NCBI GenBank assembly: GCA_977017645.1
Contig: OZ360226.1
Location: 62,310,001 to 62,374,000 of the forward strand
Source of the DNA: Torpedo marmorata
Lineage: Eukaryota
Reading direction: 5' to 3'
Length of the DNA: 64,000 nt
The notes under the pieces are model-generated. The model searched no databases and was not told the origin of the DNA. It saw only the letters and a program-made list of their open reading frames with translations. The translations under genes were made by a program, and so were the position numbers. Below are positions 3,859-62,535 of this stretch, one piece after another (position 1 is the stretch's first letter; every line of letters begins with the position of its first letter).

Positions 3859-6215
3859 AAATCTTTACCTCGAGGTAGGGGTACCATTAGGGAATAGTGA
3901 CCATGGTATGGTTACTTTTGATATTCAACTGGAAAGGGAAAAAGAAAGGAAGTCGGAGGCATATATACTGCAGTTAAATAAAGGAGATTATGCAGCTATG
4001 AGGGAAGAGCTAGCCAAAATAAAATGGAATAATACACTAGCTGGGAGGACAACTGGGGAAAAATGGCAGGTATTTTTGAACATTTTTCGCAGGATTCAGG
4101 ATAAATTCATTCCAAAGTGGAGGAAAGGCTCAAGGAGATGCAAAAGGCAGCCGTGGCTAACTAAAGAAATCAAGTGTATTATCAAGTCCAAAGGGAGTAC
4201 GTATAAGATAGCGAAGCGGAGTGGGAAGCTTGAGGATTGGGAAACCTTCAAAGAACATCAGAGGGTAACTAAGAAAGTCATAAGGGAGGGGAAAATGAAG
4301 TATGAGAAGAAATTAGCAAGTAATATAATAGAGGATAGCAAAAGCTTTTTTAAATATGTGAAGAGGAAGAAAATGGTTCGGTCTAAAATTGGTTCATTAA
4401 GAATGGAAAAGGGTGAAATTATTACTGAAAACAAGGAAATGGCTGAGGAATTTAACAAATACTTTGCATCTGTCTTCACCAAGGAAGATATAGGTGATGG
4501 TCAGTTAGGGGGTAGTGGTCATGCGGTATCAGGAGACTGGGGGAACTTTCCTGGGGAAGTAGGGAATCTGATAGATATTAGGATCCAGAAGCAGGAGGTT
4601 GAGAGTAAATTGTTGGGACTGAGGGCTGATAAATCCCCAGGGCCTGATGGGCTGCATCCCAGGGTGCTTAAAGAGGTTGCTCTGGAAATTGTGGAGGCAC
4701 TGGTCGACATTTTCCAAAGCTCCATAGATTCGGGGGAGGTACCTGTGGATTGGAGAGTGGCTGATGTGGTGCCGCTTTTTAAGAAGGGAGGGAGGGAAAA
4801 AACGGGTAATTATAGACCAGTCAGCCTGACGTCAGTGGTGGGGAAGATATTGGAATCCATCATAAAAGGAGTAATAGCAGAACACTTAGGAAGAAATAAT
4901 AGTATAAGGGCTAGTCAGCATGGATTCCTTAAGGGTAAGTCATGCTTGACTAACCTTCTGGAATTTTTTGAAGATGTGACAAAGAGGGTGGACTTGGGAG
5001 AGCCAGTGGATGTGGTGTATTTGGACTTCCAGAAGGCCTTTGATAAGGTACCGCACGGGAGACTAGTGGGCAAGATCAGGGAGCATGGTATTGATGGTAA
5101 GGTGCTGACGTGGATAGGAAATTGGTTAAGAAATAGGAAACAAAGGGTTGGGGTAAGCGGGTCTTTTTCAGGATGGCAGGATGTGACGAGTGGAGTGCCG
5201 CAGGGATCGGTGTTGGGTCCTCAGTTGTTTGTCATTTATGTAAATGATTTGGATGATGGGATTATTAATAACTTGAGTAAATTTGCAGATGACACTAAAC
5301 TGGGTGGCGGTGTAAAGTGTGAAGAGGATGTCAGGAAAATGCAGAGGGACTTGGACAGGTTGGGGGAGTGGGCTGAAGAATGGAAAATGAAGTTCAATGT
5401 GAGCAAATGTGAGGTTATCCATTTTGGGGGCAGTAATAGGAAAGCAGAGTATTATCTAAATGGTGACAAGCTAGGGAGTGGGGAAGTGCAAATGGATCTG
5501 GGTGTACTTGTTCACCAGTCACTGAAGGCTAACATGCAGGTACAGAAAGCTGTGAAGAAGGCAAATGGCATGTTGGCTTTCATAAAGAGGGGATTGGACT
5601 ATAGGAGCAGAGACACCCTTCTGCAGTTGTACAGGGCCCTGGTGAGACCCCACCTGGAGTATTGCGTCCAGTTCTGGTCTCCAAATTTGAGGAAGGACAT
5701 ACTAGCTATAGAGGGTGTGCAGCGCAGATTTACAAGGTTAGTTCCAGGAATGGCAGGGTTGACATATGCTGAAAGGTTAGAAAAACTGGACTTATATTCG
5801 ATGGAGTTTAGGAGGATGAGGGGGGATATGATTGAGGTTTACAAAATTATCAAGGGGATAGACAGGGTGAAGTCAGATTACTTGTTCCCAATGATGGGAG
5901 AGACGAGGACTAGAGGGCATAGTTTAAGAATTCAGGGAAGGCCCTTTAGGACGGAGATGAGAAAAAATTTCTTTAGCCAGAGAAGTGTGAATCTGTGGAA
6001 TGCTCTGCCACAGAGGGTGGTAGAGGCAGATTCGCTGATTATGTTCAAAAGAGAGTTAGATAAGACTCTAATGGGCAGAGGATTTAAGGGTTATGGGGAT
6101 AAGGCTGGTAAGGGGTACTGATAGTAGTGATCAGCCATGATCTGTAAAATGGCGGTGCTGGCTCGACGGGCCGAAGGGCCTACTCCAGCTCCTATTGTCT
6201 ATTGTCTATTGTCTA
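3859..6215 (+). mobile_element. Young 5'-truncated CR1-clade LINE
   Basis: Starts at the EN end (PLGNSDH) and has an uninterrupted ORF2. The short 3'UTR carries a GGCC-GAAG-GGCC hairpin and an (ATTGTCT)n tail at 6194-6215. Confidence 0.95.
3908..6121 (+). CDS. CR1 ORF2 reverse transcriptase (open frame, lacks most of the endonuclease)
   Basis: Motifs KSPGPDG, NYRPVSLTS, QHGF, YLDFQKAFD, SGVPQGSVLGP, KFADD and LVRPHLEY; no stops over 737 aa. Confidence 0.93.
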   Translation: MVTFDIQLEREKERKSEAYILQLNKGDYAAMREELAKIKWNNTLAGRTTGEKWQVFLNIFRRIQDKFIPKWRKGSRRCKRQPWLTKEIKCIIKSKGSTYKIAKRSGKLEDWETFKEHQRVTKKVIREGKMKYEKKLASNIIEDSKSFFKYVKRKKMVRSKIGSLRMEKGEIITENKEMAEEFNKYFASVFTKEDIGDGQLGGSGHAVSGDWGNFPGEVGNLIDIRIQKQEVESKLLGLRADKSPGPDGLHPRVLKEVALEIVEALVDIFQSSIDSGEVPVDWRVADVVPLFKKGGREKTGNYRPVSLTSVVGKILESIIKGVIAEHLGRNNSIRASQHGFLKGKSCLTNLLEFFEDVTKRVDLGEPVDVVYLDFQKAFDKVPHGRLVGKIREHGIDGKVLTWIGNWLRNRKQRVGVSGSFSGWQDVTSGVPQGSVLGPQLFVIYVNDLDDGIINNLSKFADDTKLGGGVKCEEDVRKMQRDLDRLGEWAEEWKMKFNVSKCEVIHFGGSNRKAEYYLNGDKLGSGEVQMDLGVLVHQSLKANMQVQKAVKKANGMLAFIKRGLDYRSRDTLLQLYRALVRPHLEYCVQFWSPNLRKDILAIEGVQRRFTRLVPGMAGLTYAERLEKLDLYSMEFRRMRGDMIEVYKIIKGIDRVKSDYLFPMMGETRTRGHSLRIQGRPFRTEMRKNFFSQRSVNLWNALPQRVVEADSLIMFKRELDKTLMGRGFKGYGDKAGKGY

Positions 6216-11702: not shown

Positions 11703-11850
11703 TACTTTGATGAAGGGCTCAAGCCCAAAACGTCGGTTATGTATTTCTACCTTTGCTACATAAAATACACTGTTTGACCTGCTGAGTTTCTCCAGCATTT
11801 TTGTTTTTTACTTCAACCACGGTGTCTACAGATTTTCATGTTTTACTTTT
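11703..11850 (+). mobile_element. Penelope-like element 3' tail inserted at the Tc1 stop codon
   Basis: Near-identical to 51775-51920. 13-bp TSD CAAACTACTAAAC at 11690-11702 and 11851-11863. Confidence 0.92.
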
Positions 11851-12214
11851 CAAACTACTAAACATGTCTACTTTAATATACATACCATTGCTATGTCCCA
11901 AATATTATGGTGCCCTGAAATGAGGGAACTATGTATAAAAAGTGCTGTAATTTCTACATGGTCAAACCAAAATGTATACAAATAACCTTGAATAAAATCT
12001 GGAATGTGCACTTTAATCACATGAATTGTTTGATTACAAATTTAAAACTGTGGAGCACAGTGGCAAATAAAAGAAAAAAATGTGTCTTTGTCCCAAACCT
12101 TATGGAGGGCACTGTAATTTCAAAGTGAATCCAATTGACAAAGACTCATTGTTGAGATTGGAAGTTCTCACAAGGGAGCTTCATCCATCAGCAATAAGCA
12201 TTCAGAATTCGAGT

Positions 12215-24100: not shown

Positions 24101-24404
24101 AATTTCCAAAAGATCTGGTGAGTTTTTGTTGAAAGAAAATGAGAAACTGAAGATCTAGTTTGCCCTCTGAATAATAAACTCCAAATCTATACACACGGAA
24201 AACATAACATGCCTGTTTGCAAAGATCCCATCCTCCTGAGATTTCCGAGGTAATAAATCAAAATTTTAAGAAGTACAAACTATCAATTGAAAGCCTGAAT
24301 AACCTTTGTCATGCCTTTCCTTGCAATACCAGTCAGCTCAATGTGTAACCTTGAAAATTTTGATCACAGTAATTGTATCATCGCTACCCTGCACACTTAA
24401 ATAT

Positions 24405-24952
24405 CAGAAGTAAAACACGAAAATCTGTGGACACCGTGGTTGAAGTAAAAAAACACAAATGCTGGAGAAACTCAGCAGGTCAAACAGTGTCTTTTATGTA
24501 GCAAAGGTAGAAATACATAACCGACGTTTCGGGCTTGAGCCCTTCATCAAAGTATGAGAAAATGCCGGTAGGCGTCCGAACAAAAGAGTGAGGGGGGAAG
24601 GGGGGTGGCAAAGGCAGGAAATGATAGGTGGAGAAAGGAGGGAGGGGACAGCAGCAAAGAGGGGGAGGAGGGATGGCTAGGTAGCTGGAGAAAAACAGGA
24701 AGGACAGGTGAGGGGGGAGGGGAAGGGAACGACAAGCAGGTTTAGTGGAAAGCAGAAAAGTCAATGTTAATGCCATCTGGCTGGAGAGTGCCGAGACGGA
24801 AAATGAGATGTTGTTCCTCCAATTTGCGGGTAGTCTGGGTGGGATAGTACATAAGGCCATGGACAGACATGTGAGTGTGGGAGTGTGACCTGGAATTGAA
24901 ATGGTTGGCTACTGGGAGGTCGCTGTTGTTGCGGACGGAGAGGAGGTGCTCA
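24405..24952 (-). mobile_element. Young PLE 3' end (GIY-YIG C-terminus, 3'UTR, tail)
   Basis: Near-identical to 51368-51923. Confidence 0.93.
24516..24556 (-). ncRNA. Hammerhead-like motif in a PLE tail
   Basis: Reverse complement identical to 51773-51813. Confidence 0.72.
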
Positions 24953-26661: not shown

Positions 26662-26930
26662 GAGTGAAACACGAAAGTCTGCAGATGCTGTGATTGTAGT
26701 AAAAACACACCGAAATGCTGGAGGAACTCAGCCGGTCTTTTCAGCGTCTATTTTTCTCAGCCAGTCGCTTATTCCTTGTGAGACTTTCTGAGATTTCCTG
26801 CTTCTGGCTTATTCTGCTTATTCCTTGAAGAAGGGCTCAGGCCCGAAACGTCAGCATATATCTTTGTCTCCTATGGATGCTGAAAAGACCGGCTGAGTTC
26901 CTCCAGCATTTCGGTGTGTTTTTACTTTGA
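26662..26930. mobile_element. Fold-back element of inverted PLE tails (subfamily B)
   Basis: Arms at ~26698-26750 and ~26873-26926 are reverse complements; one hammerhead core at ~26819-26858; TSD TTGTCTCT at 26654-26661 and 26931-26938. Confidence 0.85.
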
Positions 26931-30510: not shown

Positions 30511-33500
30511 ATGGATAAGGCAATCTGACTGGAGAAGCTGGAGATCGATCCAAAGGAACCAGAGGCCTCTGTAAAGTTTGATATGTAGCTACACTGTTTG
30601 AAGGCCTACCTGAGGCGCCATGAAATCGCAGCCAATAGTGATCGGTACAACCTGCTCTTCACAGCTGTTGGCCACCGAGCGTACCAAATAATTTGACACT
30701 GCACTGGATATGAAGAGGCAATGGCCCTACTCCGACAGCAATACGGAGCCCAGATGAACTCGATGTACGCGCGCTTCCAGCTGGGCTCCCGATGCCATGG
30801 CCTAGGGGAGTTGGTCAACGATTTCATGAGGGCCCATGCGGGAGCTGGGACGAGCCTGCGGGTGCCGAGACGTGAATGCGGTGACCTACCAGGAGGAGCT
30901 CATCCGTGACAGGCTAGTCGCTGGATTCCGCTCCCATCACATAAGGGAACGGCTCCTGGAGAAAGGAGATCGGTCCCTACAGGAGGTGGTGCAGATGGCC
31001 CGAGCGATGGAGACTGCCCAAAAGAACGCGGAGGCCTACTCAGCGGGCCACACGGCCGCCAGGTGGGGAGAACTGGAAATGCCATCTTGGGACTTGGGAC
31101 CCCTGACTGCAGCTGCCACCACCGAGCACGCGAGGTGAAACTACTGCGGCCAAAGCATACACCCGCGAAAGTACTGTCCGGCACGTAGCGCGACTTGCTC
31201 GAACTGCCGGAGGAAAGGACACTATGCCAGGATATGTCGCTCTAAGCCCCACTCTAGCAGTGCCACGTGCGGACCGCGACCCTCGTCGCCATCTTGGGCC
31301 GACCCACTGCCACCGTCATTGCCAGTTGCTGAGAACAGGGCCGACCCACTTTCGCCGTCATTTCTGGTTGCCGAGAACCAAACTTCCAGACCAGGGGCGC
31401 GACGGCAAGGAGTGACATCACTTCCGCCTTCACCTCCGGACTCCACCGCGTGCGATCCATGGGGGCGGCCATCTCTTCGCGATCTCCTGGGCGACCATCT
31501 TGGCGGCAGCCGTCCCAACGACATAGCGGCAGCGACTCGGACAGTGAGCAACGTTGGCTTCCATCGTGCTGGAGCAGAGTAGACCACACCAGCTGGGGCG
31601 ATCGATGATGGACATTGAGGTAAACGGTCACACCACTGGCTGCCTGTTCGACACGGGAAGCACTGAGAGCTTCATACACCCGGGCACGGCCAAACGTTAT
31701 TCCCTGACCGTGTCCCCAGCCAAGGGAAAGGTAGCACTAGCCTCTAAATCCCTCTCTGTGGAAATCTGGGGGAGCTGCACCGTGACCCTAACCGTGGAGG
31801 GCACGAAATATAAGAACTTCAAACTGCTGGTGATGCCCCACCTCTGCGCGCCAGTCATATTGGGGCTAGATTTCCAGTGCCAACTTAAAGGTGTGCTGAT
31901 GCAGTTTGACGGGCCCCACCCCCCCCCCTCACCGTCAGTAATAACCAGTTCCAGGAGGACCCACCCATTCTCCTGCGGAGGCCCAATCACACGCTCGAAT
32001 GCCGGGTCGCGCACCCGACCTGCGGCCTGGCCACCCTCCGGGTCCCTCCGCCTCCGCTTCCGCTGTTCCAAAACCTCACCCCGGACTGCAAACCTGTTGC
32101 CACTAAGAACAGGAGATACAGCCCTGGGGACAGGGAATTCATTAAGACGGAGGTGGAGCGGCTGCTGGAGGAGGGCATAATAGAACCGAGTAACAGTCCC
32201 TGGAGGGCGCAAGTTGAGGTGGTGAAGAGTGGGGAGAAGTATCGGATGGTGATAGACTACAGTCAGACCATCAACCGGTTCACCTTATTATTCACCTTTG
32301 CCCCGCATAGCTGATATGGTGAATGAGGTCACCAAGTATAGGGTCTTCTCTACCATAAACCTCAAAGCGGCGTATCACCAAATCCCGATTCACCCAAAAG
32401 ACCAGCCGTACACGGCATTTGAGGCCAACGGCTGACTCTACCATTTCCTGCGGGTCCCATTCGGCCTCACGAACGGGGTGTCAGTGTTCCAAAGGGAAAT
32501 GGACCGCATGGTGGATGACAATAAACTAAAGGCTACGTATCCATACCTGGACAATGTCACCATCTGCGGCCATGACCAGAAGGAACATGACGAGAACCTG
32601 CAGAGGTTCCTGGCCACCGCAAAGGCCCTCAATCTCACATACAATGAGAAAAAGTGTGTGTTTAGCTTCAAGCGGTTGGCAATCCTGGGGTATGTGGTGG
32701 AGCATGGTGCTATCGCCCCCGACCCCGATCGCATGTGGCCCCTTCTGGAATTACCTCTGCCACAGAACCCCAAGGCTTTAAAAAGGTGCCTGGGGCTCTT
32801 CTCGTATTATGCCCAATGGATCCCCAACTATGCAGACAAGGCTCAACCCCTGGTGAAAACCACTACCTTTCCCCCATCGGCGGAGGCCCGTAAGGCCTTC
32901 AAGGGCATCAAGGGCAAGATTGCCAAGGCGGGGATGCACGCCATTGATGAATCCGTCCCGTTCCAAGTGGAAAGTGATGCCTCCGACTTCGCTCTGGCCG
33001 CCACACTGAACCAAGCAGGCAGGCCAATGGCATTTTTTCCCGCACCCTCCAAGGCCCCGAACGCAGGCACTCCGCCATCGAGAAGGAGGCACAAGCTATA
33101 GTGGAGGCTGTGCGTCACTGGAGGCACTACTTGGCCGGCAGACCATTCACCCTGCTGACGGACCAGAGAGCCATCGCTTTTATGTTTAACAATAAACAGC
33201 GGGGTAAAATCAAAATTGACAAGATCATGAGGTGGAGAATTGAGCTGTCCACCTACAATTATGAGATCTGGTACCGGCCGGGCAAGCTCAATGAGCCGCC
33301 CGATGCCCTGTCCAGGGGAACCTGCGCCAGGGTGCAAGTTGATCACCTCCAGGCCCTCCACGATAGCTCTGCCACCCTGGGGTCACAAGGCTATACCATT
33401 TTGTGAGGGCCCATAACCTCCTCTACTCAGTAGAGGAAGTCAGGGAGCTGACTCGCAATTGCCCGGTCTGTGCGGAATGCAAGCCGCAATTTTACAGACC

Positions 33501-34502
33501 GGAGAGAGCCCAACTCATCAAGGCCACTCGCCCCTTCGAACTTCTCAGCATGGACTTCAAGGGGCCTCTCCCATCCACGAATCGGAACATCTACTTCCTG
33601 AGCATCGTGGACGAGTACTCACGTTTTCCATTCGCCATCCCCTGCTCCGACATGACCACATCCACGGTCATTAAAGCACGCCACACAGTATTCACTCTGT
33701 TCAGATACCCCAGTTACGTTAATAGCGACCAGGGATCTGCCTTCATGAGTGAGGAGTTGCGGCAATACTTCCTTTCCAGGGGCATAGCTACGAGCAGAAC
33801 CACCAGCTACAACCCCTGCGGGAACGGGCAGGTGGAAAGGGAGAATGGTACGATCTGGAAGGCAGTCCTTTTGGCCCTCAAGTCGAAAGGGATGCCCATA
33901 TCCCAGTGGCAAGAGGTCCTTCCAGAAGCGCTGCATGCCACCAGGTCCCTACTCTGCACTGCCACTAACGCAACACCCCATGAAAAATTATTCTCCTTCC
34001 CTTGGAGGTCGGAGTCGGGAATCACGCTGCCGGTCTGGCTGACGACCCCAGGGCCGGTGCTTCTCCGGAAGCATGCTAGAACACACAAGGCGGACCAACT
34101 GGTCGAGGAAGTGCACCTCCTGCATGTGAACCCCCAGTATGCGCTGGTAAGGTACCCAGACGGACAGGACAATACAGTGTCCATCCGGGACCTGGCGCGA
34201 GCAGGGGCCCCGGCACGGGAGGTGCACCCGATATCCCCGGGCAGCGACCAGTCGGCCCCAGGGATCACCCTGACAAACGATGTAGGGATCCCACCTCCAA
34301 CACAGCCCCCCGAGTGTCATCCCCCCCACTCTTACAAACAAATTCCCCACCCCCTACGGACCTGGTACACACAGACACAGTTCAGCCCTCCAACAGCCAG
34401 CAGATCAAACAAGCCACCGCTCTGCTGGAACCAACGATACAGCCAGCAGTACTTCGGAGATCTCAGCGCCGAATAAATCCGCCGGAGCGGCTGAACCTAT
34501 GA
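30511..34502 (+). pseudogene. gag-pol polyprotein, fragmented
   Basis: Gag IRDRLVAG and a double Cys/His knuckle (YCG..HPRKYCPARSATCSNCRRKGHYARIC); protease LFDTGS; RT PFGL and YLDN; RNase H SDAS and TDQ; integrase DFKGP, VDEYSRF and NGQVER. Confidence 0.93.
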
Positions 34503-35483: not shown

Positions 35484-35696
35484 GAAAAAAACACAGAAAT
35501 GCTGGAGGAACTCGCAGCATCCATATAAGGTAAAGATACATAACCGATGTTTCGGGCCTCAGCCCTTCTTCAAGCTTTAACTTGAAGAAATGTCAGTTAT
35601 ATATCTTCACCTCCTATGAACGCTGCAAGACTGCTGAGTTCCTCCAGAATTTCTGTGTTTTTACTCAATCAAGCATCTGCAGACTTTCGTGTTTCA
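35484..35696. mobile_element. Fold-back element of inverted PLE tails
   Basis: Inverted arms around a CTTCAAG...CTTGAAG centre; hammerhead core on the minus strand at ~35540-35575; flanking CTCTGGATTAT / CTCTGAATTAT repeat. Confidence 0.8.
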
Positions 35697-38894: not shown

Positions 38895-39772
38895 GCACAC
38901 AAAGGTGCTGGGGAATCTCATCAGGTTACGCAGCATCTGTTGAAAGTAGAGGGTAACCAACGTTTTGCTGAGGTACACGCAAAAGGGAGGCAGGTGTCTG
39001 AATAAAAAGGTGGGGGGAGAGGAGAAGAGGGAGGAAGGGGCATGGGGAGAAGTGCAGGCTAACAGGAAAGAGGTCATAGGTGGATATACAGTAGGTGTAA
39101 GGGTAAAAGAGGAAAAAGTTGAGAAGTAATGGGGGAGGGGGTAGCTGTCTGAATTGAGAGGGAGGGGAAGGAGGTGGGGAGCTGGAGACAGAGGGAGAGA
39201 GAAAGAGAGAGACTCGGGTGAGGGGTTTAACGGAAACTGAAGAAGTCAATGTCTCTCAAGTCTCTGGTTGGAGAGCACCCAGACGGAATAGTAGGTGTTG
39301 TCTCCTTTCCTCCAGCTCCCCACCTCCTTCCTGAGCACAGGCACTGCCATCTTGGGCACAGGCCCATGGTTACAGACCCGCGTTGCAGGATCTTAGTTTA
39401 AAAATAACGCCTGTATGGAACCGCCAGCATTAGGACCGGGTGGTTGAACCCTTCAGAACAGGCTGTATTTCCGCTCTCCACTCTCTCGGCTCCATACCAG
39501 TGGCAGCGCTGTCATTACAGCAGCTCCGGCAGTGCCATCATTTTTTTTTTTAGCCTGCACTTCTCCCCCTGTCCCTTCCTCCCTCCTCTCTTCTCCTCCC
39601 GTCACCTTTTCAGGTGCCCGCCTGCCTTTCGCTCATACCTTGACGAAGGGCTCAGGCCCAAAATGTCGGTTACTCTTTACTTCCTATAGATGCTATGTGA
39701 CCTGCTGAGTTTCTCCAGCACTTTTGTGTATTGCACTACCATCACAGCGTCTGCAGATTTTCCTGTGTTACT
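38895..39772. mobile_element. Larger inverted pair of PLE 3' ends with an unrelated insert in the middle
   Basis: Minus-strand PLE end at 38895-39300 and plus-strand PLE end at 39552-39772; flanking CTCTGCT at 38888-38894 and 39773-39779. Confidence 0.75.
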
Positions 39773-39894
39773 CTCTGCTAATCTGATTGCCACTATTCAC
39801 TGAGTAAATCTGCAACAACAGAACATACCTGAAGTGCAACACAAACATCAGGGTTGCTATCAAAAAAGGCTCAACTCAGGGATGACATCGACAG

Positions 39895-42954: not shown

Positions 42955-43727
42955 ATAATGGAGACAGAGGAATTGAGAGAAAGGAATAGAATCCTTGCAG
43001 GGGACTGGGTGTGAAGAAGTGTAGTCGAGGTAGTTGTGGGAGTTGGTGGGCTTGTAAATAATGTCTGTACAAAGCTTGTTTCCTGAGATGGAGACAGAGA
43101 GATCAAGAAAGGGGAGAGTGTCCCCAGAGATGGACTAAGTGAATTTGAGGTCGGGGTGAAAGTTAGCAGCAAAGTGAATAAAGTTGACGAGCTCATCACG
43201 GGTGCACGAGGCAGCACCAATGTAGTCGTCAATGTCGCGAAGGAAGAGTTGAGGAGCCTTGCCTGTGTAGGCTTGCAGCATGGATTGCTCACCCGTAAAT
43301 TGGAGGAGCAACACTTAATTTTCCCTCTAGACACTCTCCAACCAGATGTCATTAACATCAATTTCTCCGGTTTCTGCTAGCCGACTCCCCGTTCTCCCTT
43401 TCTTCCCCATCCCTCTGTCTTCTTTCCTCCAGCTCTTCATTCACAGAGCCATCACCCCTCCCCTTCTTTGCTGGTGTGCCCTCCCTCCCTTATCCACCTA
43501 TTACCTCCTGCCTGCGGGACTGCGCTCCTCCCCCTGCCCCTCACCCCCACCATTTTGTTCAGGCACCTGACTACATTTTGCTCATACACTGTTGAAAGGC
43601 TCAAGCCCAAAACATTGGTTATGTATATTTATCTTTGCTATATAAAGTACACTGTTTGACCTGCTGAGGTTCTCCAGCATTGTGTTTTTACTTCAATCGC
43701 GGTGTCTGCAGACTTTCGTGTTTTACA
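42955..43727. mobile_element. PLE 3' end with an inverted 5' segment
   Basis: 42955-~43282 is minus-strand RT sequence (DIDDYIG); ~43285-43727 is the plus-strand ORF end and tail. Confidence 0.82.
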
Positions 43728-43829: not shown

Positions 43830-45310
43830 GCCAACCAGCCAAACCTGTTTGTGAGCTCGATACTAATGTTGGGGACTGGGAAAGAGTTTGTGATTCTGTC
43901 CACACTTTTATCAACAACAATCAAGCTGCAAGATTGAACATGGAAATATCACAGTTGGTGGGGATGGAAATACAGCAGCCTCTCAAAGAAGTGGATACTC
44001 TTCCTTGCTGATTAACATCCAAACAAATGTACTTTCATCTTCGCTGACGATCTGGCAATAATAGCTCAAGCAGGGGACCTTGCCTAATTTGAATACACCA
44101 GCAGATACCCTGGTCAGACTGATTGTCTATGAGGTTGTTCATCACCTTCAACAAAAACAAACAAAACACAGGTCGGCTTTTCATACCTGCTCAGTTGAGA
44201 AGCAAATAAAAAGGTATGGTAAATATTAACCAAAATGGCACATATCTCCCTCACTCACTGCACAAATCCAGATTTCCTTTGAAAAATCCAGATTTCCATG
44301 GATTGTGTACACTCTTACAAGAGGGATTTTGAGGAGATGGAAAGATGGAAAGGATCTGAAGCATTCTCATCTGGATGTTTGCACAGATCCAATGACCTGG
44401 AACCTTTGCAATCCATCCATCCTTTTCTAGAGCTAAGTGTGCTATCCAGTATAGTAATACACTGCCCATGCAAAATAAAATCAATCCAATACTGAACACT
44501 GGCTGCGGAATCAACTTTGGCTGAATTACTCTGACAAACATCAACAGCGCGGTGTTTCTGGAATAGTACTACCAAACATCAATGAGCTGTGGTGGCCAAA
44601 CAGAAAGGAGATTGTGGATTCTACATGGTGACACTACTGCACGAAACTTCTTGGAGTTGCACAGGAACTTTCTAATGCCAACACAGGGAACCAACACTGC
44701 TGCTGCAACAATCCACAAGGTGTTGTGGCAGACACAGGTTACAAACGTTGACTGGGGGATTACTATGGGCATTAGATTAACTGACCACCTGGAAGGGTTT
44801 GATCTACCTCCGTGGGTGAAACACAAAAGTCTGCAGATGCTGTGATTGTAGTAAAAACACACCGAAATGCTGGAGGAAATCAGCCGATCTTTTCAGCGTC
44901 CATAGGAGACAAAGATATATTGCTGACGTTTCGGGCCTGAGCCCTTCTTCAAGGAATAAGCAGAAAATGTTTATCTGCTTATTCCTTGAAGGGCTCAGGC
45001 CCGAAACGTCGGCAATATATCTTTGTCTCCTGTGGACGCTGAAAAGACTGGCTGAGTTCCTGCAGCATTTCGGTTCGATCTACCTCCATACCCAAGTCGG
45101 CCAGCAATCAGCCAGCATGATGGAAGAAGACCACACTACAATAGATGAGATTTGTGACTGAGGTGTGAATCAGGCATGCAACAACTTTTGGTCTGCCTTC
45201 ACCTTAACGGCAGCCCATGCAAGCTTAGGATCTTGACAGGATAAATTGTGAGCTTTGCAAGGTACACATCAATGGAAAGATCTATAACTTTGTTGGGTGG
45301 ATACAAGAGA
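43830..45310 (+). mobile_element. Ancient LINE RT remnant (Vingi/Ingi-like)
   Basis: FIFADDLAIIAQ at about 44033 and LSVLSSI-like downstream remnants; heavily decayed. Confidence 0.45.
44812..45071. mobile_element. Near-perfect fold-back element of two inverted PLE tails (subfamily B)
   Basis: Arms of about 100 bp meet at AATAAGCAGA-loop-TCTGCTTATT; TSD GGTT(T/C)GATCTACCTCC at 44796-44811 and 45072-45087. Confidence 0.9.
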
Positions 45311-49794: not shown

Positions 49795-50824
49795 CAAAGA
49801 GCCATACAGAACAGAAATAGGCATTCTGCCCAAAGCATCCCTGCTGACGACTGGGCACGCATCCATATTAATCCCATCTTTCAGCACTTGTCCATTGCCT
49901 GAGTGATTGAAGTTCTCATTTGAATGTTTCATAACTGCTGTCAATGATTCTGCTTCTGCCACACACTCAGACAGTGTATTCCAGGTACTCACCATTCTCT
50001 GAGTGAAAAAGGTCCCCCTCAAATCGCTTCTAATTCTCTTACCCTTTACTCTAAATCTATGTCCTTTAGTTTTATCTATCTCTGTTATGGGACAGTGTTT
50101 CCTGAAGTCTACCCGATCGATACCCCTCATAATTTTATCTATGTCAAACATGTCCCCTCGTAACCCTCTCCGCTTTGGGAAAAACTGATGCAGCCAGTCT
50201 CTCCTCATAACTGAAGTACTCCATCCTGGTGATTCTCCACTGCATCCTCTCCAATGATATCATAAGGTTCCTATAGTTTAGTGATCGGTATAACACACCA
50301 TACTCCAGCTGAAGTCTGACCAATGTTTTAAGTAGTTGGAGCATAACCTCCCTGCTCTTTATTCCATGCCCCGACTAATGAAGGCCATTACCCCATATAC
50401 CCTCTTAACCATATTATCTACCTGCGCTGCCATTTTGAAGGAATTATGGATTTGTACACCAAGGTGTCTCTATCCCTCAATGCTCTCTAAGATGCGAGCA
50501 TACATGGTATATGTCCTCGCATCATTAACACTCCCAAAATGCATCACGTCATATTTATCTGGATTAAACTCCATCTGCATTTCCTCCACCCATTTCACCA
50601 GCATAAAATACTGCATCCTAAGTTCTCTCGCCTCACTGTCAACCTTCCACAAAAATTTGTGACATCTGTGAACTTAGTGATTATGCGTCGTACATCCATA
50701 TCCAAATAAAACAGCAAGAGTCTCTGCACTGTGAAACCCCATTTGTCACAGGCATCCAATAATGAGAACACCTTCTACAACCACCTTCTGACTCGTATTG
50801 CCAAGCCAATTTTGCATCCAAGTT
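49795..50824 (-). mobile_element. Old CR1 ORF2 3' half (continues at 55069-55225 beyond the PLE insertion)
   Basis: Remnants MEFNPDK...MHFG, LVRLQLEY, RRGLRGDM and FFTQR; a DVVHMDFGK remnant after 55075. Confidence 0.85.
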
Positions 50825-51772
50825 GCAACATCTCATTTTCTGTCTAGGCACTCTCCAGCCAGATGGCATTAACATTGACTTTTCTGCTTTCCACTAAACC
50901 TGCTTGTCTTTTCCTTCCCCTCCCCCCTTACCTGTCCTTCAAGTTTTTTTCCACCCACCCAGCCATCCCTCCTCCCCCTCATCCTCACCTACCACCCCAC
51001 CAGCCTCCGCATCCAACACATTACCCACCGGAATTTCCGGCACTTACTACAGGATCCCACCACCAGACACATTTTTCCTTCTCCTCCCCTCTCGGCCTTC
51101 CACATGGACCGCTCCCTCCGCGATTCAATCGTGCACTCATCCCTCCCCACCCATCGCACCCCCAGCACCTTCCCCTGTGCCCGCAGGACGTGCAACACCT
51201 GCGTCCACACCTCCCCCCTCACCACGGTCCGGGGCCCCAAACAGGCCTTTCAAGTGAAACTACACTTCACTTGTACATCCAGAGAACTTATTTACTGCAT
51301 CCGGTGCTCCCTTTGTGGCTTTCTCTACATTGGAGAGACCGGTCGTAGATTGGGAGATCGCTTTTCTGAGCACCTCCTCTCCGTCCGCAACAACAGCAAC
51401 CTCCCAGTAGCCAGCCATTTCAATTCCGAGTCACACTCCCACACTCACATGTCTGTCCATGGCCTTATGTACTATCCCACCCAGACTACCCGCAAATTGG
51501 AGGAACAACATCTCATTTTCCGTCTTGGCACTCTCTAGCCAGATGGCATTAACATTGACTTTTCTGCTTTCCACTAAACCTGCTTGTCATTTCCTTCCCC
51601 TCCCCCCTCACCTGTCCTTCCTGTTTTTTCCACCCACCCAGCCATCCCTCCTCCCCCTCTTTGCTGCTGTCCCCTCCCTCCTTTCTCCACCTATCATCTC
51701 CTGCCTTTGCCATCACCCTCCCCCCCCCTTACCCCCCTCACTCTTTTGTTCAGACACCTGCCGGCATTTTCT

Positions 51773-51813
51773 CATACTTTGATGAAGGGCTCAAGCCCGA
51801 AACGTCGGTTATG
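51773..51813 (+). ncRNA. Minimal type I hammerhead-ribozyme-like motif in the 5' pseudo-LTR
   Basis: CAUACU-UUGAUGA-A-GGGC(UCAA)GCCC-GAAA-CG-UC/GG-U-UAUG. Confidence 0.75.
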
Positions 51814-52489
51814 TATTTCTACCTTTGCTACATAAAAGACACTGTTTGACCTGCTGAGTTTCTCCAGCATTTTGTGTTTTTACTTCAACCACGGTGTCTA
51901 CAGATTTTTGTGATTTACTTCTGACTACTACAACAACTCTGTGAAAGCTCTTCGAGGGATGCCTACCCTGAAGAAGTTCGCCTTTGCTCTCCGAAGGGAG
52001 TTCTGTGGGATTCTCTCTCACTGCTCCCCATCTGCAACCCCTGCTGCTTTCAAGCTCTACGACCATGTACTCACCCAGACTCGATTCCACAGCCACGTTG
52101 CCTTTCTCGCTACTTGCCTCCGTCGCCATCTTGTGCCTCATGGTTTCCAGCTTCGATTCCAGGCCTCGCAGTTTGGCCCCCGCAAGGACCTCAGGTACCT
52201 ACACAGCTTCGACTACTGCTCTCTCTGCTTCTCCCAACGACTCCTCCGCTTCACCCTCGCCTCGATGCGGAGATATCAGCGGCAACTCTTCCTCACCTGC
52301 CACAGCTCCGGACCTCGCTGGCCACGGCCTGCAGCGGACCCCACCTATACTACATCCGCCGCCGGATCCACGCGTTCAACCGCCGGCTCTACACCTACCT
52401 GGCGTCCATCAAGAACCGTAAGCTTGCCTCCCTCGAGACTGCAGCCTCTGCGACCCTCTACGTGGATCCCCATCTCGGCCCCGGCCACC

Positions 52490-52760
52490 TGCCCTCCGGA
52501 GCTCCCAATGCCGCGTCCGACGACCCGAGCCTGGACCCTGGCTGCCGACTCACCAGAGCTCCCAACGCCACGGACGCCAACCCGACCCTGGACCCTGGCC
52601 GCCGACTCCCCGGAGCTCCCAACGCCATGGCCGCCCACTCCTACACGCGCCCCTGGCGCCGACACGACGGTACTCCCGACGCCACGGCCGCCCACTCCAG
52701 CCCGGGCCCCGAGCCCCGAGCCCCTACTCACCAGAGCTCCTGATGCCTCCACTGCCGACT
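52490..52760 (+). repeat. Imperfect GC-rich tandem repeat (about 57-bp unit) inside the PLE ORF
   Basis: Recurring GAGCTCCCAA(C/T)GCC...CCTGGACCCTGGC.GCCGACTC. Confidence 0.8.
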
Positions 52761-52854
52761 CCCGACACAGACTGTTACCTGCTGGAGCCTCCCACGCTGA
52801 CTGCCACTGGAGTCCTCATCGCGTTACTGAATTCCACTTACTTATCCCCCTCAC

Positions 52855-53165
52855 TACTCCTTCCCTATCCTCCCACACCTCTCCCTACTCCACCCCATCT
52901 CCCCCTCTCTGCCCCCCTCTCCTCCCCAACCCTCAGCCTCATCCCCCCCTCTCTCTGGCTACCCCCCAACCCCCCTCTCCCACCCTCCTACCTCCCCCAC
53001 CCCCCACCTCCCCCCTCTGACCCCCCCTCCACCCGCCAACACCCCCGACCCCACTCCTCCTCCCTCCAATCTCCCCCACCTTCCATCTCTACCCTCGGAC
53101 CTCCCCAACTCTCCCCCTCCCCCCAACACCCTCCACAACACCGACCCCCACTCTAACCCCCTGCT
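52855..53165. repeat. C-rich low-complexity tract inside the PLE
   Basis: Almost G-free runs of C separated by T or A. Confidence 0.85.
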
Positions 53166-54918
53166 TGGTTTTTACTATCCCCTCCAACCTTCCCCTCTCT
53201 GAGATGGAGCGCTCGGTCCTCAGTAGAGGCCTCACATTCGTCCCCCTCCGCCAACACCTCATCAAGTTCCGCGCACTCTGCGATGCCGAACTCTTCTTCC
53301 GTCGCCTCTGCCTCCGGGCTCACTTCCATGACCGTGACTCTACACCCCCCACCCAAGACCCTTTCTCCCGCTTCAAGCCATCTTCCTCTTCCTGGACACC
53401 TCGTCCTGGCCAGCTGCCCGCTCTGGACCTTTTTATTTCCAACTGCCACCGAGACATCAACTGTCTCAACTTCACCACCCCCATCTCGTATTCCAACCTC
53501 ACCTCCTCAGAATGCTCACTCTCAATAACTTCTCCTTCAACTCATCCCACTTCCTCCAAATCAAAGGAGTAGCCATGGGTACCCGCATGGGTCCCAGCTA
53601 TGCCTGCCTGTTTGTGGGCTTTGTGGAGCAATCCATGCTGCAAGCCTACACAGGCAAGACCCCTCATTTCTTCCTCTGGTATATCGACGACTGCATCGGG
53701 GCTGCCTCATGCACCCGCGATGAGCTTGTCAACTTCATCCACTTCGCGTCCAACTTCCACCCGATCTCAAACTCACCTGGTCCATCTCCGATAACGCTCT
53801 CCCCTTCCTGGATCTCTCTGTCTCCATCTCAGGAGACAAGCTTTCCACTGACATTTACTACAAACCCTCCAACTCCCACAACTATCTGGACTACACTTCC
53901 TCACACCCTGTCCCCTGCAAGGATTCCATCCCCTTCTCTCAATTTCTCCATCTCCGCCGCATCTGTTCCCAAGATGAGGTCTTCCAGTCCAGATCTTCTG
54001 AAATATCTGCCTTCTTCCACAAACGTGGCTTCCCCTCCACCACCATCAACTCAACCCTCACCCGCATCTCCTTCAATTCCCGCTCATCTGCCCTGGCCCC
54101 CTCTGCCCCCAGATGCAACAAACATAGAATCCCCCTCATCCTCACCTACCACCCCACCAGCCTCCGCATCCAACACATTATCCTTCGGAATTTCCGGCAC
54201 TTCCTACAGGATCCCACCACCAGACACATTTTTCCTTCTCCTCCCCTCTCGGCCTTCCGCAGGGACCGCTCCCTCCGCAATTCCCTCGTGCACTCATCCC
54301 TCCGCAACCATCGCACCCCCGGCACCTTCCCCTGCGCCCGCAGGAGGTGCAACACTTGTTCCCACACCTCCCCCCTCACCACGGTCCAGGGCCCCAAACA
54401 TGCCTTTCAAGGAAGCTTCACTTCACTTGTACATCCAGAGAACTTATTTACAGCATCCGGTGCTCCTTTTGTGGCTTTCTCTACATCGGAGAGACTGGTC
54501 GTAGATTGGGAGATCACTTCGCTGAGCACCTTCTCTCCATCCGCAACAACAGCGACCTCCCAGTAGCCAACCATTTCAATTCCGGGTCACACTCCCACAC
54601 TCACATGTCTGTCCATGGCCTTATGTACTATCCCACCCAGACTACCCGCAAATTGGAGGAACATCTCATTTTCCGTCTGGGCACTCTCCAGCCAGATGGC
54701 ATTGACATTGACTTTTCTGCTTTCCACTAAACCTGCTTGTCGTTTCCTTCCCCTCCCCCTCACCTGTCCTTCCTGTTTTGTTCCACCCACCCAGCCATCC
54801 CTCCTCCCACTCTTTGCTGCTGTCCCCTCCCTCCTTTCTCCACCTATCATCTCCTGCCTTTGCCACCCCCCCTCCTTCCCCCCTCACTCTTTTGTTCGGA
54901 CGCCTGCCGGCATTTTCT

Positions 54919-54959
54919 CATACTTTGATGAAGGGCTCAAGCCCGAAACGTCGGTTATG
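54919..54959 (+). ncRNA. Minimal type I hammerhead-ribozyme-like motif in the 3' pseudo-LTR
   Basis: Identical to 51773-51813. Confidence 0.75.
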
Positions 54960-56964
54960 TATTTCTACCTTTGCTACATAAAAGACACTGTTTGACCTGC
55001 TGAGTTTCTCCACCATTTGTGTTTTTTACTCCAACCACGGTGTCTACAGAATTTCATGATTTACTTTTCAAGTTATTAACTTGCCTTGGATCTCTTGGGC
55101 CTTTTCCTTTTGGACCAGTGCCCCATGTGGGGCATTGCCAAAGGTTTTACCAAAATCCATGTGAACCATATCTACTGCACTACCCTCATCGATATCTCTT
55201 CAAAAATGTCTTGTCATATACTAATTGTAGTTGTGATAATCCAGGCAGAAGACACTAACACCAGGAGCTAGGCATATTCAAAAGTAACTCAAAATGATTT
55301 GCCCACTATTTTTCTTCCTCTCCTTAAGGAATATACAGCCCATATTTGTTTGTGTTCTTGCCAATCAACTGAAACAGCAGAACCATAATTTCACCTTGTG
55401 CTGTTATATGAAGTTGTAGTATGGATACCGATACACAGGCACTGAGCACCTTCTCAAATAACAGAAATGGGCAGCAGTAGTAATTTGACAGAAATTTCAA
55501 GCACTAGTCGGAAACAATGATCTCATTATAAGGCACAATTTAAGTATTTCCCACAAGATTAATTGCTAATGTAGTCCATTGTTCAAACCTGATTAAAATA
55601 GATTTTTAAAAATATATTACATGACATCATGCAACAGATGTATAGTTTTGCTAAAGAAGGCATTGTTCATTAGCTCTTTATTTCAAAGGTGAAGAGCAAT
55701 TCTCACCACTGATTATTGTCAGTTCAGGAGCATTGTAAGTTAGTTGACGGGGAGGAGTGATGTAAATGAGAACATCTGTTATTTAAAATAACAGCTGGCA
55801 TGAACAGTGCACAAATTGCTGCTTAAACCAGAATGCACTTTGAATTTTACTCACAGGGCAAACGAAATTGCATTTCAATAAAAAATACCCGTAGAAAAAG
55901 AAGAGAGTCAGAAAAGTATTAATGCTAATATTCTTAGAAATTGAATTGGCTACTCAGCATACAACTGTGGTGAGGAGGACAGCAGATTGTGCCTGTTTCT
56001 TCAAAAATAATAAAACCAAACTTGGTAGTTCAGTTTTAAAGACTAGACTCAAGGCAGAAAGAGATGTGTTCTTACCCAAAATACCCATCAGTAAATAAGA
56101 ACTCGATAAAACACACATATATTATACTGTAACTGACACACGAAAGTAAACAAATACTCTCTATTCTTGACAAATTTATTCTACATTCTACAAAAAAACA
56201 ATTCTCAAATCACATCAGAAGTGGCACAATTTGTTCATAAATCATTGTTAATACAAGCAAAATATAGCAGCATTGGAATACAGATCTTGGTGCTCACTCA
56301 TAGGTGGATTGGTGAAGCAGCGTTGAGCTATACATGACCTTATTTGTACTGAATATTTTTACTTGTAGTCAATTCCTCATTTGTACTGAAACGTCTGATC
56401 TTGGATAACATATTGCAGTTGGCCTTACAGTTTACTGGGGAATGAGAGTCAGGTAGAGTTTCCAATCTTGATCATCATTTATTGACTCCTTCCTGAAAAA
56501 TCTGACATTAAGTGAGCAAAATTAGATTTGGCTGCAACATCCCTATTCTTTGCCAACATTCATTTCCTAGGGTCTTAAACATGAAAAATGGGCTCACAAC
56601 CACATTTCTAGAGTATCAATTCCATAAATCACATAGATCATTCCTCCTTCAATTAAGAACTACTGATCTTAAAATTATTCCAGCTGGCTAGTATAACAAA
56701 AGCAGAAGTGAAGCAGTAACCAGTCTACCAGCCTCCAGAGTACACATGTCTATGGATATGGCAGGCACAGCGAGCAACTAGCACAGCTTGTGTCCGAGCA
56801 CACAGTTAGCACAAGAAAACATTTGTTTATTCCCGCAAATACCAAATAAAAGTATGTGATCCTTTTGAGATCATTCACCTTCATTGACAATAGGTGCTTT
56901 AAAAATAGTTCACTTTACAGTCAGTCCTACTGCCACTGCCCATTGCACCCTGTTTGAAATCTGA

Positions 56965-62004: not shown

Positions 62005-62535
62005 TTTCATTGCACGTTTCACTAGACAACCCAAAGCAACTTACAGCCAATTAAGTGCTTTGGGGTAATCACTGCTCCAAGGTCTCAAAAGCAACTGCCA
62101 ATTTGCACACAGCAAGCTCCCATAAATGTGTCAGTGAGCAGTTTTAGTGATGTTGCTTGAGGTACAAATGACTGCTACACCAGGACACCATATGGCGATT
62201 ATTCCTGGTGTCCCGCTCATTCCTGATCAAGGGTTTTCTGCCCATAACGTAGACTTGCTTTCATGGATGTTGCCTGAGCTGCAGGTTTCTCTAGCACTTT
62301 CTTGATGTGTGCTCCAATTCTCCAGCATCTGCATACGTCCTGTTCACTATTCATCATATCCCTCCTTCATACAGTCAATACAATAAAATGCATTAGTCCC
62401 CTCTACCCCACCACCACCAGAGGACAGGCAAGGCCTTAAATGATTATCTCATCTAAAAGAATGACATCATTAAGAGTGGTGTAATACTGAAATGCCTTGA
62501 GGTTAGTGGAGTGTGACTTCAAACCTCAAACCTCC
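62005..62535 (-). mobile_element. Ancient Deu-domain SINE, interrupted by a PLE tail (about 62215-62350)
   Basis: CCCAAAGCAACTTACAGCCAAT...GCCAATTTGCACACAGCAAGCTCCCA...TAGTGATGTTGCTTGAGG...CCAGGACACC, with a tRNA-head remnant near 62505-62535. Confidence 0.72.

Follow-up and report, generated by a model that had tools for sequence, protein, structure and literature searches.

Two identical minimal hammerhead motifs with a U3·G8 core in a dead Penelope-like element of Torpedo marmorata

The window, a stretch of 64,000 nucleotides from contig OZ360226.1 of Torpedo marmorata, contains a composite repeat on its forward (+) strand. Two direct repeats at 50973..51920 and 54130..55066 are 93.3% identical according to self-BLAST and correspond to the pseudo-LTRs (pLTRs) of a Penelope-like element (PLE). 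The 5' pLTR is a partial tandem copy of the linker, the GIY-YIG end, the 3' UTR and the tail, and its GIY-YIG portion gives a Pfam match below the cutoff (E 9e-4). The 3' pLTR carries the full tail, and the 3' ends of other family copies cluster at 55025-34 and 55060-69. An extra pLTR piece of 155 bp at 50826..50980 equals 51506-51659 (94.8%, self-BLAST) and ends before reaching the hammerhead. The composite is bounded by a 6-bp target-site duplication, with the same hexamer at 50819..50824 and 55069..55074. Its flanks translate as consecutive reverse transcriptase (RT) peptides of another element on the minus strand, which we take to be CR1-like. Since the flanks are consecutive RT pieces joined by a 6-bp duplication, the composite represents a single insertion site. 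No uninterrupted CR1 copy spanning both flanks was found among the sampled loci (0 pairs), and contiguity of the flanks rests on their translation.

Frameshifted remains of an RT-linker-GIY-YIG open reading frame (ORF) occupy 51921..54730, as delineated by Pfam and by tblastn against the natural ORF of another family member (locus L281). This relative contains an open frame of 1,028 amino acids, with a DKG motif at 374 and CX4CXXC linker cysteines from 831; its RVT_1 (E 3e-6) and GIY-YIG (E 0.056) matches are both under the Pfam cutoff. In the window copy the ORF is broken and the linker is retained, but a deletion of about 607 bp with a junction at 53515..53517 has removed the equivalent of residues 356-558 of the L281 ORF, including the DKG, GRPIV and DVQSLY motifs. 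An exact pattern for this junction matches once in 6.2 Gb, at the window itself, although a mutated daughter could escape such a pattern. The window copy is a dead partial tandem. Partial tandem pLTRs and an optional tail of 30-40 bp are both seen in the element family. A DKG motif and a CX2-5CXXC linker are described as marks of Neptune and Nematis elements (PMC8557442). By these features the element would be a Neptune-like Penelope, where the choice of Neptune over Nematis rests on the vertebrate distribution given in the literature. A comparison of the RT sequence with PDB returned five unrelated matches (E 0.4-0.7).

The surroundings are rich in related material. More truncated copies, belonging to this subfamily and to older ones, lie in the window at 11703-11864, 24404-24952, 26817-26927, 35487-35694, 39609-39777, 43291-43726, 44816-45074 and 62216-62337, and at two of these places a pair of copies is inverted head-to-head, with the junction at the motif. 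A 57-bp tandem repeat at 52474-52765 falls in the N-terminal coding region and varies in copy number among full-length elements. Long stop-free frames are present at 728-2875 (-, 715 aa), 3860-6121 (+, 753 aa) and 33367-34476 (+, 369 aa).

Each pLTR contains an identical 41-nucleotide motif, at 51773..51813 and 54919..54959 (both +), that reads as a minimal type I hammerhead. Letter-by-letter reading of the first copy assigns the 5' strand of stem I to 51773-51778, the core from U3 to A9 to 51779-51785, an extra A to 51786, stem II with its four-nucleotide loop to 51787-51798, G12 to A15.1 to 51799-51802, a palindrome in place of stem III to 51802-51805, C17 to 51806 and the 3' strand of stem I to 51807-51813. 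Stem I comprises 6 bp with one bulge and a closing U·G pair, and its pair 2.2/1.2 covaries. The unpaired A51786 sits between positions 9 and 10.1, and G51787-C51798 forms the G10.1-C11.1 pair. Cleavage is predicted after C51806 and, in the second copy, after C54952; the span between the two predicted cuts (51807-54952) is 3,146 nucleotides. All parts named in the original prediction (stem I, core, extra A, stem II, GAAA and the ACGU palindrome) are found letter for letter at both places. The assignment to the minimal type I hammerheads of PLEs is likewise borne out by the location in pLTRs, the extra nucleotide, the G10.1-C11.1 pair and the palindrome. The palindromic stem III that would permit a dimer is present at 51802-51805 and is invariant in the 11 subfamily consensuses described below. 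The original prediction had also regarded the extra A as non-canonical. This point must be withdrawn: a nucleotide after A9 and the G10.1-C11.1 pair are conserved features of the published PLE minimal hammerhead consensus (PMC4209133).

Could such a short motif be a chance match to the hammerhead descriptor? A monomer of this type has no stem III, and Rfam has no matching family: over the whole window there was no match at the gathering threshold, and at E<=10 there were two chance matches that lie elsewhere. The identity of the two 41-nucleotide motifs is also weak evidence by itself, with p about 0.06-0.29 at the observed divergence of the pLTRs. Against a chance origin, the motif sits in a pLTR and its layout is nearly identical to that of the printed Acropora Neptune motif. 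A looser descriptor finds 84 distinct matches in random loci plus the window versus 5 in their shuffles, and reversed control patterns find none in the genome. With these controls, the conservation of the core and the covariation in stem I, we consider a chance match to be ruled out for practical purposes and give it hardly any weight.

Compared with the core CUGANGA + GAAA + UH, the motif deviates solely at C3, which is U; G8 is retained. The original prediction rightly called U3 a departure from the consensus, but the deviation is not damage private to the window copy. Genome-wide, U3 patterns match 92,955 times and C3 patterns 2,011 times, so that U3 makes up about 98% of pattern matches; the window's subfamily alone accounts for 64,473 intact matches. 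By these counts U3·G8 is the family state, and it has one printed precedent: the PLE motif of Saccoglossus kowalevskii (1) is drawn with U3 and G8 (PMC4209133, Fig. S3). The consensus given in that paper has C3, and the core variant discussed in its text is U3-A8. Our literature search for C3U or U3-G8 hammerheads found nothing on the variant, although supplements outside the search may list U3·G8 families, and a search for Penelope hammerhead ribozymes in sharks returned nothing relevant. Since the families that are most decayed have C3, U3 is likely derived from it. Exchanging C3 for U lowers hammerhead activity. Selection for a restored 3-8 pair was not seen within the main burst: next to the 64,473 intact copies, single-position variants of the window subfamily number 561 at G8, 801 at G5 and 241 at U3, counts that look like neutral decay. 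A C3 subfamily that is still young (0.6% divergence in 5 targeted copies at L125-L127, near 8.48-8.50 Mb of G000:C2) occurs as local repeats about 2.4 kb apart and provides a natural comparator for the U3 family. At two other loci (L121 5375 and L122 257), a C3 motif carries G at position 17, in inverted copies about 5 kb apart.

Conservation was examined in a sample of 120 random 10-kb stretches plus targeted loci, in which copies were gathered by a profile of the downstream tail alone. This profile yielded 318 tail copies, of which 234 with a recognizable motif and enough flank were clustered and 84 were dropped. We kept 11 consensuses built from 5-78 copies each and excluded two clusters of inversion junctions. 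U3 marks five of the 11 consensuses; in a tree, their split from the six C3 consensuses is weakly supported (0.58), and one C3 cluster is mixed. Among four well-defined U3 consensuses, none of the 15 core and palindrome columns varies, whereas 51 of 108 columns in the flanks do (Fisher p 2e-4). Changes are seen at N7, at N17 and in the loop, and 82 of 84 random copies have C or U at N17. Pair 2.2/1.2 of stem I switches from C-G (53/84) to U-A (7/84); these switches likely reflect few independent events, since relatives share changes. Over all 11 consensuses the outcome depends on a short hairpin in the tail (51848..51869, +), downstream of the hammerhead, in which 20 of 22 columns are invariant. 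Without this hairpin, 9/12 core columns versus 15/51 tail columns are conserved (p 0.007); with it, the tail count becomes 35/73 and the difference is not significant (p 0.12). Conservation of the core above the tail background thus holds for the four U3 subfamilies and loses significance over the 11 consensuses once the hairpin is counted. The original prediction had named, as one half of its refutation, a core no better conserved than the tail; since the core is conserved above its flanks, this is not what we found. Because the core is kept through subfamily turnover while its flanks vary, the motif is under constraint, which by itself is no proof of catalysis.

The 3' ends of random copies fall at two tail sites 75-115 nucleotides beyond the cut site (10/33 and 18/33), and none was found at 54950-54954 among 33 random or 160 total copies. 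Likewise, none of 130 random copies has its 5' end in the cut-site bin (2.3 expected, p 0.10). Genome-wide patterns for 5' ends gave 139 matches at the cut site, 1,201 at stem I's 5' edge and 365 at a control position 17 nucleotides upstream of the motif edge, where nearly half of the matches are, by eye, fold-back palindromes counted twice. After filter correction these numbers become about 550, 4,250 and 1,160, respectively. Hence neither the three-window pattern test nor the 130 random copies reveal an excess of 5' ends at the cut site. By hand count, 76 of the first 100 cut-site matches keep G51807 and about 8 of 12 inspected ones begin there; the control shows the same junction-microhomology bias. 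Assembled contigs from four runs, which reveal neither ends nor strand nor level, are deeper over the motif and tail in two of them (X2 and X3), and this depth is set aside as evidence.

The 5' ends of short genomic copies do accumulate within the 5' strand of stem I (51774..51778, +). Sixteen of 130 random copies, representing 15 events, start at these positions (p 2e-8), in U3 and C3 subfamilies alike. For old subfamilies, part of this peak may stem from upstream sequence that differs from the consensus, an artefact of which the genome-wide pattern test on the young subfamily is free. Among 20 stem-I-edge loci inspected by eye, at least 4 have a target-site duplication and about 8 represent inversion junctions. 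A start of full-length elements at this edge finds no support: none of 49 loci has a 5' pLTR starting at 54920-54925, although many of these loci are mutual segmental duplicates. Separately, the 5' pLTR of the ORF-bearing copies at L238-L262, on C79 and unplaced contigs, begins within the motif or past it. Identical breakpoints recur across many contigs, which is likely the result of segmental amplification. A short palindrome at 51759-51766, just 5' of the motif, is a frequent center of perfect fold-back insertions genome-wide. The word at 51772-51778 is initiator-like when set against the initiator consensus. The Penelope element of D. virilis is described as having an internal promoter in its pLTR (PMC2377424).

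Folding was predicted with a nearest-neighbor model that ignores tertiary contacts and proteins. For the isolated 41-mer, the best predicted fold is rod-shaped, with the core buried inside (-11.8 kcal/mol, z -2.2). Stem II is predicted to form in context with a pair probability of 0.94-1.0, and of 0.99-1.0 for the motif at 51773..51813, whereas stem I has a probability of about 0 because a competing downstream hairpin, placed by centroid folds at 51809..51835 (+), would capture its 3' strand. The dimer geometry nests without a pseudoknot. Nevertheless, the isolated dimer is predicted at -13.7 kcal/mol versus -23.6 for two monomers, a cost of about 10 kcal/mol, and a double-hammerhead fold in the full 3.4-kb RNA is unfavorable at +24.7 kcal/mol.

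These results bear directly on the suggestion, made in the original prediction, that the two hammerheads pair and release a unit-length RNA of about 3.1 kb that might circularize. That such an RNA of the window copy acts as an intermediate is not supported: the genome holds a single instance of the deletion junction, copy ends are absent from the cut site, and folding as a dimer is predicted to be unfavorable. Since the unit was shortened by the private deletion, 3.1 kb is no family unit length; the two motifs of full copies lie about 3.7-4.1 kb apart, and the 3,146-nucleotide unit is a private form. A related scheme could still operate at the level of the family. Hammerheads in a tandem transcript would pair through the palindrome with the help of the element's protein, and the unit RNA would be cut, ligated into a circle and reverse-transcribed more than once around to give pLTR-ORF-pLTR. 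Such a cycle was proposed in PMC4209133, where dimer activity in vitro was low, and it fits the nested geometry and the conservation of core and palindrome. A ligated circle, too, would yield copies whose tails run past the cut site and that lack ends there. The pLTR pairs of two elements (L266 and L275) share rare variants, and non-CpG sites are identical in 2 of 9 pairs, which fits one RNA segment copied twice. The pLTR distance over these 9 elements, 0.026 within and 0.030 between elements, is not decisive for or against the cycle. On the other hand, the cut site bears no footprint, the unit of the window copy left no daughter, and both pLTRs of the young full-length copy L266 (positions 2948 and 7072) carry a G at 2.1, so that stem I loses its closing pair. 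In many ORF-bearing copies the 5' pLTR begins within the motif or beyond it, and none of 39 motifs in the 120 random 10-kb loci has a same-strand partner 2.5-4.5 kb away, a count limited by the locus edges. On balance, we regard a circular intermediate as unlikely.

The anatomy, the copy number, the U3·G8 family state, the conservation, the lack of copies ending at the cut site and the uniqueness of the deletion are observed. In our preferred reading, which we judge to be probable by a modest measure, the motifs are the standard minimal hammerhead carried by a Neptune-like Penelope of very high abundance, acting as a weak, normally misfolded, protein-assisted RNA element and not as a pair that cuts out a unit length. 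Two motifs are present because the dead copy is a partial tandem. Reverse transcription would start at two internal tail sites, as in the anole element, on RNA still intact at its 3' hammerhead. The wobble core and the competing hairpin may keep cutting slow, and selection may preserve the fold or the protein bound to it. The motif could then be a slow protein-assisted element or a merely structural one, and it likely does not cut out the RNA of the window copy. A harsher version holds that U3·G8 killed catalysis and that the motif persists as a protein-binding or promoter element, or as a hitch-hiker on a successful lineage. The lack of selection for a restored pair in the main burst and the lower activity that goes with C3U agree with a dead catalyst, as does the abundance of Naiads, which lack hammerheads (PMC8557442). 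Pure drift, however, would hardly have left all catalytic residues, a permitted N17 and stem I pairing in place over several U3 subfamilies, which makes this version improbable, slightly more so than the circular intermediate. The pile-up at the stem I edge suggests a further scheme that we put forward only tentatively, as a long shot on a par with the circle. This edge may be a discrete 5' end, either a start site or a nuclease stop, of a protein-protected RNA with a wobble core and an auto-inhibited fold that is no longer a cutter, and units of hammerhead plus tail of about 105-146 bp would have been copied by the thousands in a SINE-like manner. If true, such a 5' boundary would account for the conservation of a motif at which templates stay uncut.

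The role of Penelope hammerheads has been called unclear (PMC8557442). The window pair, lying in a dead copy, contributes little to this question alone. About 90,000 U3·G8 copies beside young C3 relatives in one genome form a natural pair for asking whether cutting is needed, and with the 5'-end pile-up at the stem I edge the motif has an in vivo footprint that can be measured.

By its sequence, the motif is of a known and well-conserved kind, the extra base included. Minimal hammerheads in the pLTRs of metazoan PLEs were described by Cervera and De la Pena in 2014 (PMC4209133). As in their examples, the motif is of type I with an extra nucleotide between A9 and 10.1, a G10.1-C11.1 pair and a palindrome at 15.2-16.2, it occurs once per pLTR about 3 kb apart, and most genomic copies are solitary. 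It shares the layout of the 4-bp stem II with the Acropora digitifera Neptune motif in that paper. In contrast to the published consensus, it has U3·G8 instead of C3 and a stem I closed by U·G. The non-LTR retrozymes also use type I hammerheads related to those of PLE pLTRs, but they consist of short tandem repeats that are non-coding, carry canonical hammerheads and have demonstrated circles (PMC7229834; bioRxiv 10.64898/2026.07.22.740005). The window unit, a 3.1-kb remnant of an ORF that carries a minimal motif, is not a retrozyme of this type.

A further element for comparison is PAc, a Poseidon element from the green anole (Frangieh et al. 2024, PMC11167929). As reported there, its hammerhead cleaves only with protein, insertion in vitro persists when the hammerhead is mutated, and none of the RNA reads had an end at its site. 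Protein-assisted cleavage was thus measured for PAc, whereas cleavage of the Torpedo marmorata motif is predicted. PAc belongs to the Poseidon clade, has a C3-G8 core and starts its ORF inside stem II, unlike the element described here. Both place the hammerhead at the junction of pLTR and ORF, and the two internal RT start sites that bound the optional tail of PAc match our two clusters of 3' ends (PMC11167929). In its overall architecture the element resembles the Neptune and Nematis EN+ PLEs described by Craig et al. in 2021, with an RT, a CX4CXXC linker and GIY-YIG at the C terminus, and with partial tandems, inverted 5' copies and a tail of 30-40 bp (PMC8557442).
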